A DNA stretch of 64,000 bases from positions 248,001 through 312,000 of the forward strand of contig JAPEUD010000019.1 in assembly GCA_026026165.1 (NCBI GenBank), read 5' to 3'. Position 1 is the stretch's first letter. Each line of letters opens with the position of its first letter. This document shows positions 32,891 through 34,496 of the stretch, piece after piece. The DNA is from Sarea resinae. Its lineage: Eukaryota. Made by a program: the position numbers and the translations under genes. The notes below the pieces were generated by a model. That model made no database searches. It was not told the DNA's origin and was given only the letters and a program-made list of their open reading frames with translations.

Positions 32891-33130
32891 TTCGATGCGC
32901 TGAAGAGGAAGAATTGCGGTTCTTGTAACCCTAGGGAATGGTAAAGATGCTGCGGACGTGCTGAGACATGATAGCAGCGCAAAGACCGCGTCGCGACAGA
33001 GCCGCAAAGAACTATTCCACAAGGCGCATAAGGCAATTCAATTGCGTTTGTCCTGGAGTTGCTGCTGCTCCTCCTGACGCAGCGGGAAAAGAAAGTCGCC
33101 GGCATCTCCCGTCGGCCAGGTCTCGACCCT

Positions 33131-33166
33131 CATCCAGATCATCCAGATCATCCAGATCATCCAGAT
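33131..33166. repeat. (CATCCAGAT)x4 tandem repeat in the DHX35/CCDC25 divergent region
   Basis: Directly visible. Confidence 0.9.
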
Positions 33167-33260
33167 CCTTGCAACAACAACAACAACCTCCTCGACGAAC
33201 GGCTTTCGATACTGCCCCTCACCACCCAGTCCATCGTTGCTTCAATCCTCTTCCGCCAGA

Positions 33261-34496
33261 ATGGTCTATTACTTCACCAGTAATGCCGTCACTCCCTCCG
33301 CCTTCATCTACGTCGGCAAAGACAAGTTCGAAAGTATGCGCCCACATCCCCACCATCCAGCATCCAGCTTGCCCCGCGCCCCGCGCCGTCGTCCCGGTCT
33401 CCTCCACAAGAAGCCTCTCTCTTCTCCTCCGCCGCCGTGCTAACGTCTCACTCAACCAGATGAAGAGCTGATTGCGCACGGCTGGGAAGAGGATGTATGG
33501 TATCTGCCTTTCCGCCCCCGAGACCCTCCATTCCGCAAATAAGCAAACCAATCCCCGACTAACACCTCCGCCACCTCGCAGGGTTCGTCGCACTTCTCCT
33601 AGAACGCAACCTCTATATCTTACAATTCCCTGACTTGGTCCCGTTCAGTTCCACGTCGACAATCTCTCCAGCGCGCACGTCTACCTCCGCCTTCGCGACG
33701 GCGAAACCTGGGACGCCATCCCGCCTGGCCTCCTCCAAGACTGCATCCAGCTAACCAAAGCGAATTCAATTGAGGGTTCGTGTGCTGGCCCGCCACTCCC
33801 CCCTTTCCCCCGCTCCATTCCCACTCCAATCTTGCACTGATCGACTAACGACCCCTCCCCGTATCCCGCACCCACAGGCAACAAGAAGGACAACATAACA
33901 GTCATCTACACGCCGCACGGCAACCTCAAAAAGGACGGCAGCATGGCCGTGGGCCAAGTCAGCTTCAAGGACCCCAAGAAAGTGAAGAAGGCGCTCGTGG
34001 TGCAGCGCGAGAACGCCGTCATCAACCGGCTCAACAAGACCAAGGTCGAGAAGACGAAGCCGGACCTGAGACAGGAGAAGGAAGACCACCTGCGCGAGCT
34101 GCGGAAGAAAGACCGCATCGCGCAGCAGGAACGGGTTTGTCTCTCTCCCTTGGTTTTTCTTTTCTCCTTTTTTTTCTTTTCTTCGTTCCTGATCCTTGCG
34201 TGCATCCGAACCTTCATTCGACTCAACCCCAGTCTCCCGTCTCCTCGGCCCCCCCTCCCCCCTTTTTTTTTTTCTTTTCTCCGTCTTCGCCCCTTCCATG
34301 TCCACTCCGATAGAAGCCTCGCTAACCCCAGGCTCGGAACAACCAGAAACAGCGCGAGGCAGCCACAGCGCGCGAACACGCCGCCCTCGCGTGGCAGAAA
34401 GACCACGCATACGACGAGCTCTTCGGGGACGAAGAGGCGCTGAAAGCGACGCAGAACTGGGACCGCGAGGAGGGATGGGAGGACGACTTCATGTGA
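33261..34496 (+). CDS. CCDC25: CCDC25/Jlp2 (NFACT-R, DUF814) protein; model includes a 1-nt exon
   Basis: [62 protein letters not shown]. Confidence 0.95.

Follow-up and report, generated by a model that had tools for sequence, protein, structure and literature searches.

Can a single nucleotide serve as an exon in a fungal gene? The question is raised by a CCDC25/Jlp2-type gene (NFACT-R_1) of Sarea resinae (class Sareomycetes), which lies on the plus strand at 33261-34496 of the window, i.e. the whole 64,000-nucleotide stretch of contig JAPEUD010000019.1 analysed here, and which reads as six exons. The original prediction, made from the letters alone, placed two complete introns around a lone G in this gene, and reading the DNA confirmed all of its coordinates and splice signals. 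The parts of the gene are as follows (slashes in sequences mark exon-intron boundaries).

33261..33333, plus strand: exon 1, with the ATG at 33261; it ends in GAA A (phase 1) and corresponds to profile positions 1-25 of alignment A1
33334..33459, plus strand: intron 1, 126 nt, GTATGC...CCAG, with a branch-like GCTAAC
33460..33499, plus strand: exon 2, 40 nt, ending in GAT GTA TG, where TG forms bases 1-2 of the Trp codon
33495..33500, plus strand: competing donor GTATGG, built from the Val and Trp codons; with the acceptor at 33648 it gives the annotated protein that lacks Val-Trp (VW)
33500..33581, plus strand: intron a, 82 nt, with GTATCT, ACTAAC at 33558-33563 and CGCAG; the branch A is 33562, 19 nt before the 3' end
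33582, plus strand: candidate one-nucleotide exon, G, the third base of the invariant Trp codon (W38)
33583..33648, plus strand: intron b, 66 nt, with GTTCGT, CCTGAC at 33629-33634 and TTCAG; the branch A is 33633, 15 nt before the end
33649..33775, plus strand: exon 4, 127 nt, starting with TTC CAC GTC GAC, i.e. F-H-V-D
33776..33877, plus strand: intron 3, 102 nt, with the gene's second GTTCGT donor
33878..34134, plus strand: exon 5, 257 nt
34135..34346, plus strand: last intron, 212 nt, pyrimidine-rich; the deposited model takes an alternative acceptor at 34331
34347..34496, plus strand: last exon, with the stop codon TGA at 34494-34496; the full model has 215 residues

The gene belongs to the CCDC25/Jlp2 family. 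Exon 4 by itself scores 36.3 bits against Pfam NFACT-R_1 (PF05670), above the gathering cut-off of 29.8; the protein is similar to CCDC25, including a match to the human CCDC25 structure (PDB 7eoe, E = 4.8e-11), and 983 homologues were found. The top database match is a 218-residue protein from a Sarea resinae MAG, with 100% identity over exon 4. Neither of the stop-to-stop ORFs on the minus strand at this locus (141 and 74 aa) has a Pfam match, and the sole Rfam hit at the locus, COG3860 RNA, is a chance match (18.8 bits vs 42.5, E = 0.25).

Splicing the window in silico separates the possible routes sharply. When G33582 is kept, a 215-residue protein with DVWFHVD results. Joining 33499 directly to 33649, i.e. 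skipping the G, shifts the frame and leads to a stop at codon 73, as had been anticipated; retention of intron a gives a stop at codon 52 and retention of intron b a stop at codon 55. The donor at 33495 gives an in-frame protein that lacks V37-W38 only, which also agrees with the original prediction, and this donor combined with the acceptor at 34331 reproduces the deposited protein of the Sarea resinae MAG (P0001) letter for letter. We also enumerated all GT-AG micro-exons inside 33500-33648 that leave the frame open. There are two, the 1-nt exon and a 39-nt exon, and only the 1-nt exon yields DVWFHVD. The 39-nt micro-exon (33544-33582, spliced from the 33495 donor) keeps the frame and was rejected because it swaps VW for 13 unrelated residues. 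Both approaches thus bear out the claim that TGG and the family motif D(V/I)WFHVD need G33582: the base is abutted by the AG and the GT of two introns that are each complete, and it is needed for both the frame and the conserved motif. The GTTCGT donor of intron b is not an isolated case, as had been noted for the window, since the same hexamer is found again in this gene, at 33776.

Based on these data and on the comparisons described below, we consider it very probable that G33582 is a constitutive one-nucleotide exon of this CCDC25/Jlp2-type gene. For S. resinae itself, we infer the spliceosomal inclusion of the G, its constitutive use and the order of the steps. In this model, introns a (82 nt) and b (66 nt) would be complete, ordinary U2-type GT-AG units of typical fungal size. 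The acceptor of intron a (CAG/G) and the donor of intron b (G/GTTCGT) would overlap on common nucleotides, and the two introns would be removed in succession because the readers of AG/G and G/GT must occupy these overlapping nucleotides. Either order of removal would result in GAT GTA TGG TTC CAC, the start of D-V-W-F-H-V-D. Since transcription reaches intron a before intron b, our guess is that it is also removed before it; its removal would create TGG/GTTCGT as the donor for the second step, in a manner resembling recursive splicing but with one base kept. Of the four bases, G alone would suit both an exon start behind an acceptor and an exon end ahead of a donor. The other routes would be unproductive, i.e. 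skipping or retention would lead to an early stop and the GTATGG donor to the loss of V37-W38.

We also considered, and rejected, that intron a is of the U12 type. Introns of this type are recognised by an extended donor of the form RTATCCTT together with a branch site resembling TCCTTAAC. The donor of intron a reads GTATCTGCC and its branch motif is the U2-type ACTAAC; the donors in relatives are GTAAGT, GTATGA and GTGAGT, among others.

The same two-intron layout had been predicted for orthologues. Using alignment A1, which comprises 23 full-length fungal homologues, we fetched related metagenome DNA, confirmed 293 stretches and examined the best 80 of these at the Trp/Phe junction. The arrangement TG/GT...AG/G/GT...AG/TTC is present in 18 of these best 80 of 293 loci, and in one further locus (L030) the contig is cut inside intron a, yet CAG/G/GTATGAG is visible. 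Of the other loci among the 80, 54 run from the Trp codon into the Phe codon without interruption (in three of them an intron lies one codon further upstream), five carry one phase-0 intron directly behind TGG, i.e. at the position of intron b, and two have the junction outside the contig; intron a alone was found in none of the best 80 of 293. All listed loci with the 1-nt exon also have an intron near the profile position of window intron 1, except L030, the contig of which lacks that part. Merging identical and near-identical contigs reduces the 18 loci to 13 lineages, or 14 with the window; L030 is outside this count.

The recurrence of the layout bears on the possibility that the frame conflict is an artefact, i.e. 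a one-base assembly error in the MAG or a decaying pseudogene. The best database match is indeed labelled MAG, and one missing base near a splice site would mimic such a conflict. However, the layout is present in 18 other contigs from 13 lineages, and the remaining gene is intact, with an open model of 215 residues and Pfam support; we regard an artefact as barely credible.

Returning to the one-nucleotide exon, the orthologues share the layout while their introns have diverged. Not one of the 14 lineages, window included, deviates in any of the elements GT, AG, G, GT and AG. Across the same 14 lineages, intron a is 49-90 nt and intron b 48-163 nt long, and the interiors of these introns are no more alike than shuffled sequences (mean identity 0.51 vs 0.51 shuffled for intron a; 0.46 vs 0.46 for intron b). 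In 13 of the 14 lineages, intron a has a branch-like motif 8-24 nt from its 3' end; L022 has none within 45 nt. When the window's own 149-nt stretch was shuffled 20,000 times, 0.9% of the shuffles contained an AGGGT dividing it into halves of 40 nt or more, and the same split is seen in 14/14 lineages. Per locus, the shuffle chance of this split is 0.6-5.5% and the summed log10 is -23.7, a figure in which independence is overstated due to shared ancestry. The retention of AG/G/GT while its surroundings have been randomised is, judged from these comparisons, a signature of selection. An origin of introns a and b by duplication of one another was rejected: the a-to-b identity per locus is 0.40-0.64, which is not above that of shuffled pairs.

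The same data weigh on a reading in which there is a single non-canonical intron of 148 nt, spanning either 33501-33648 (TA...AG) or 33500-33647 (GT...CA), and no exon within it. Because a G stands at both 33500 and 33648, the position of the junction is uncertain by one base and such an intron would give the same TGG TTC mRNA, so that the mature mRNA is identical for a 1-nt exon and for one shifted non-canonical intron, and it is the conserved internal AG/G/GT alone that favors the exon. For a single intron, each lineage would have to use either a CA acceptor or a donor of the TA, TG or TT kind. Such an intron would also leave without a reason the invariant internal AG/G/GT amid interiors at shuffle level, as well as the branch-like motif near the 3' end of intron a in 13/14 lineages, and each half has the size of a normal fungal intron (48-163 nt). 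We consider this reading very unlikely.

The two-intron arrangement with a retained G predicts an mRNA junction in which GATGTATGG is joined to TTCCACGTC, while the counterpart lacking VW would read GAGGAT/TTCCAC; a junction reading GATGTATGGTTCCAC would speak against the latter. That the protein lacking VW is the real one, made by splicing from GTATGG at 33495 to 33648 in one step, with the internal AG/G/GT as a relic, is the alternative with most in its favor, although we still judge it improbable. P0001 equals this model exactly and the product is in frame. The GTATGG donor, 5 nt upstream of the donor of intron a, has G at +5; by contrast, the window donor GTATCT is the weakest among the 14 lineages and the only one with C at +5. 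Because the donor of intron a is the weakest of the 14 and GTATGG lies 5 nt upstream, it is plausible that S. resinae makes some mRNA without VW, and this could be a real, even sizeable, isoform.

As the main product, however, the form lacking VW fits poorly with the conservation of the site. V37 and W38 are invariant in 23/23 aligned full-length proteins (A1), and the window retains all four inner splice signals as well as the two branch motifs. Immediately before TG, six lineages have the codon GTC, three GTG, two GTT, two GTA and one ATA (Ile); this variation is synonymous or conservative, as one would expect for coding sequence. Read as a donor, the GTN codon has C or T at +3 in 8/13 cases. 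In L063, the sequence is ATATG and the alternative GT donor is wholly absent; therefore, the route to a protein without VW would be impossible in that lineage.

Protein databases provide a further line of evidence. We retrieved 264 homologous database proteins and classified them by script; 202 of these have an NCBI gene model and 62 (from jgi, lgn and ena) are contiguous ORFs only. Among the 202 gene models, 82 have DVW-FHVD, 58 lack VW and 34 have an intron-derived insert at exactly the same point. Among the 62 contiguous ORFs, 35 have DVW-FHVD, and the form lacking VW and the insert each occur in none; the other 27 are fragments, and 24 of these begin within the intron or ahead of it. In twelve cases, a complete ORF of 211-213 residues fits on a contig of 907-1414 nt; these must be intron-free copies, and all twelve carry DVWFHVD. 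As had been predicted, gene callers miss the exon: P0001 lacks VW and 92/202 NCBI gene models are wrong at this point. Together, these observations make the form without VW look like an annotation artefact.

Three individual comparisons illustrate the pattern and approach a same-species test; these transcript-like ORFs are from relatives and are compared with gene models rather than with the genomic DNA of the species concerned. From FHVD to the end, P0016 agrees with the Aspergillus fumigatus model P0019 at 175/175 aligned residues, and its first 36 residues are those of the A. fischeri model P0030. At the point where these two models are garbled, P0016 has EKDVWFHVD; the 10-residue insert found in P0019 at the next intron is missing from P0016. 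Similarly, P0258 matches the Fusarium phyllophilum model P0257 in 36/36 and 171/175 residues, with IW in P0258 where P0257 has IC followed by 16 intron-derived residues (a 17-residue read-through). VW is the sole difference between two Verticillium dahliae entries. Searches for a same-species cDNA/genomic pair (tblastn and blastp of the retrieved proteins against the loci, and a search with the long exon of L019) returned only the genomic ORF P0227 and no transcript form of full length.

As a separate observation, the intron-derived N-termini of P0019 and P0004 have in common G-F-V 24 codons before FHVD. This is what A GGG TTC GT, i.e. AG/G/GTTCGT, would encode in frame, an unproven lead.

The position of the lost residues in the protein is also informative. 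In the alignment with PDB 7eoe/7eof, H40 of the 1-nt-exon model falls on chain residue 54, or H41 once the 13-residue tag is subtracted; residue 14 of the CCDC25 chains is Met1 and the aligned W-F-H is W39, F40 and H41. The His encoded by exon 4 is thus CCDC25 H41/Jlp2 H44, and the site of the one-base exon lies two codons before this histidine. According to the account in a 2026 preprint, Jlp2 H44, which is orthologous to CCDC25 H41, is essential for peptide release from peptidyl-tRNA on stalled ribosomes (10.1101/2025.09.04.673968). In an AlphaFold model of P0057 with A1 (mean pLDDT 74; mean of 84 for residues 31-40), V-W-F-H-V (37-41) is one strand. Deletion of VW would strip the first two residues of the predicted strand that bears the reported catalytic His, a further point against the form lacking VW as the main product.

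How widely is the one-nucleotide exon distributed? We built an ML tree from the part of the protein from FHVD onward (104 rows, LG+G4, SH-aLRT only); this is a quick tree in which 42/101 inner branches are unsupported. The classes of Sarea, Microdochium, Penicillium, Cryomyces and Bathelium were checked, and the remaining tree references and genera presumably belong to the classes given here. L053 groups with two Penicillium proteins (support 90), and L049, L054 and L079 form a clade (99) within the Eurotiomycete reference group (81). L075 groups with Microdochium (93), L030 with Coniochaeta (96) and L022 with Podospora appendiculata (93), and L019 and L078 fall among Sordariomycete references. 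L050 and L080 lie near Cryomyces, weakly. L041, L063 together with L057, and the window have no placement in this tree; in Protein Atlas, L057 matched generic eukaryote clusters only (scores 0.86-0.89). In a tree of the loci only (63 distinct rows), the three junction states require at least 6 changes. This patchy distribution fits an old origin followed by repeated loss of introns, in a tree that is blind to gain versus loss.

For Cryomyces, Bathelium and Pseudovirgaria (Dothideomycetes) and for Sarcosagium, there are likewise gene models without VW, a hint that these fungi have the same layout.

Taken together, we think it likely, from comparison of the loci and proteins, that this is the most widely conserved 1-nt exon in fungi yet, that it is constitutive, that it arose before Eurotiomycetes, Sordariomycetes and Sareomycetes diverged and was retained thereafter, that it has been lost in some lineages via loss of intron a or of both introns but, among the sampled loci, never via loss of intron b alone, and that it is misannotated in a large share of Pezizomycotina models. 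If so, CCDC25 would provide a natural and genetically tractable test bed (Aspergillus, Penicillium, Fusarium, Verticillium) for obligate sequential splicing. Because its two minimal introns share overlapping splice-site nucleotides, the locus would lend itself, as a clean natural substrate, to studying the order in which intron-defined spliceosomes carry out two neighbouring reactions, and the loci with intron b only or with neither intron offer a ready comparative series. Recognition of the exon would also correct a systematic annotation error in a conserved ribosome-rescue factor (58 models without VW and 34 with inserts), which would otherwise distort studies of the structure, evolution and function of fungal Jlp2/CCDC25.

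At recursive splice sites (ratchet points) in long animal introns, a 3' and a 5' splice site are juxtaposed around a zero-length exon. CCDC25 resembles these sites in that the sites are juxtaposed and the first ligation would build the next donor. However, in CCDC25 one base would be kept, and the introns are about 50-160 nt rather than very long. In fungi, a parallel in splicing order is the stwintron, which had been invoked in the original prediction. As described by Fekete et al. (2017; PMC5587772), a stwintron consists of an external intron whose donor, branch or acceptor is split by an internal one, and the mRNA retains no base from between the two. The likeness stands insofar as both are found in Pezizomycotina, with two short introns together and an obligate splicing in two successive steps (predicted for CCDC25), and are missed by gene callers. 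It does not extend to the architecture: on that description, neither CCDC25 intron interrupts a signal of the other, each having its own full set, and one base would be kept. For the same reason a stwintron reading of the locus itself was rejected, i.e. GT, branch motif and AG are uninterrupted in both introns and the G must stay to give TGG.

One-nucleotide exons themselves had been described as rarely documented, which is now only partly true, with plant APC11 and VPS55, Fusarium CYP621A and 13 Coprinopsis genes in print. In plants, the 1-nt exon of Arabidopsis APC11 is reported to have been proven by base substitution (PMC4674806, Guo and Liu 2015), and 1-nt exons in APC11 and VPS55 are described across land plants together with pervasive misannotation (PMC8831610, Yu et al. 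2022). By these accounts, the plant exons and the CCDC25 exon have in common that they are constitutive (putatively so in CCDC25), deeply conserved, missing from reference annotations and lost somewhere via intron loss. They differ in that the plant case is experimentally proven, with the substituted base carried into cDNA, whereas the case for CCDC25 is built on comparison. Moreover, APC11, as reported, has long introns (the upstream intron in Arabidopsis is 332 nt) and the base is A, whereas CCDC25 has two minimal fungal introns and a G. Among fungi, a long-read annotation of Coprinopsis cinerea is stated to contain 13 exons of 1 nt in 13 genes (PMC12230235). It follows the same theme, in that fungal spliceosomes manage 1-nt exons and that leaving these out breaks gene models, in this case in a basidiomycete.

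A further fungal case is the P450 gene CYP621A of Fusarium, in which a single G in AGGGT is retained and SRA reads extend across it; the abstract gives 20 orthologues and the text 24 genes (PMC12940212, Nelson and Syed 2026). On the published description, both are fungal nuclear genes with AG-G-GT between two short introns, in both the G saves the frame and a conserved motif while gene models are wrong at that point, and both were detected through a phase conflict and alignment of orthologues. As reported, the exon in CYP621A is SRA-supported, is described from one genus and supplies the middle base of its codon. By contrast, the exon in CCDC25 is predicted from sequence comparison and would supply the third base, and its loci group with Eurotiomycetes and Sordariomycetes in addition to the Sarea-type window. 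A literature search over the main text of articles brought up none that describes a one-base exon in a CCDC25, Jlp2 or DUF814 gene. Thus, 1-nt exons are already known, and what is new is an unusually widespread fungal case in CCDC25. It suggests that a one-base exon can stay evolutionarily stable across fungal classes, as in plant APC11 and VPS55, and is not necessarily a short-lived accident of one genus.

The annotations available for a single species can diverge at the Trp|Phe junction of CCDC25. In Apiospora arundinis, the three database proteins P0160, P0161 and P0190 (211, 216 and 222 residues) embody differing junction solutions, and the same is true of the two Sporothrix schenckii proteins P0250 and P0251 (211 and 216 residues). 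These divergent same-species annotations show that gene calling at this junction is unstable.

The last intron of the CCDC25/Jlp2-type gene in the window has two candidate acceptors, 15 nt apart. This intron and two repeats upstream of the start codon (ATG at 33261) are as follows:

34135-34346, + strand: last intron, with candidate acceptors at 34331 and 34346
33130-33167: perfect tandem repeat of TCATCCAGA, 4.2 copies
33172-33187: (CAA)x5.3, 3' of the TCATCCAGA repeat

The AG at 34330-34331, which lies about 5 nt past the branch-like CGCTAAC, is the choice of the deposited Sarea resinae model (P0001) and adds ARNNQ to the protein; with the AG at 34345-34346, the spacing from QQER to WQKDHAY equals that of orthologues. 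Use of the 34331 acceptor in the deposited model, which also lacks VW, probably reflects either another mistake in the annotation of this gene or a pair of alternative acceptors. The two repeats lie approximately 75-130 nt 5' of the start codon.

Among the database proteins, P0211, a partial sequence of 178 residues that is labelled Phytophthora cactorum and encoded on a 655-nt contig, is 82% identical to the exon of the Sordariomycete-type locus L075 and looks like fungal contamination within an oomycete assembly. The transcript-like ORF P0016, which matches Aspergillus fumigatus, extends 22 residues beyond the usual C-terminal DDFM.

Among the best 80 of 293 confirmed related metagenome stretches, intron b is present without intron a in a single clade (L038, L039, L064, L065 and L067), where it is 59-61 nt long, in phase 0 and immediately 3' of TGG. 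L001, a closely related transcript-like contig without introns, reads GTCTGG TTC uninterrupted. Both introns are absent from a Dothideomycete-like clade (L036, L043 and L071). In these three loci a different phase-0 intron (57 nt in L036 and L071, 53 nt in L043) separates the codon for Glu from that for Asp, one codon further upstream, and the junction in L036 and L071 reads GWPE|GTACGA...AAAG|GAC ATC TGG. This site is a neighbour of, but distinct from, the positions of introns a and b.
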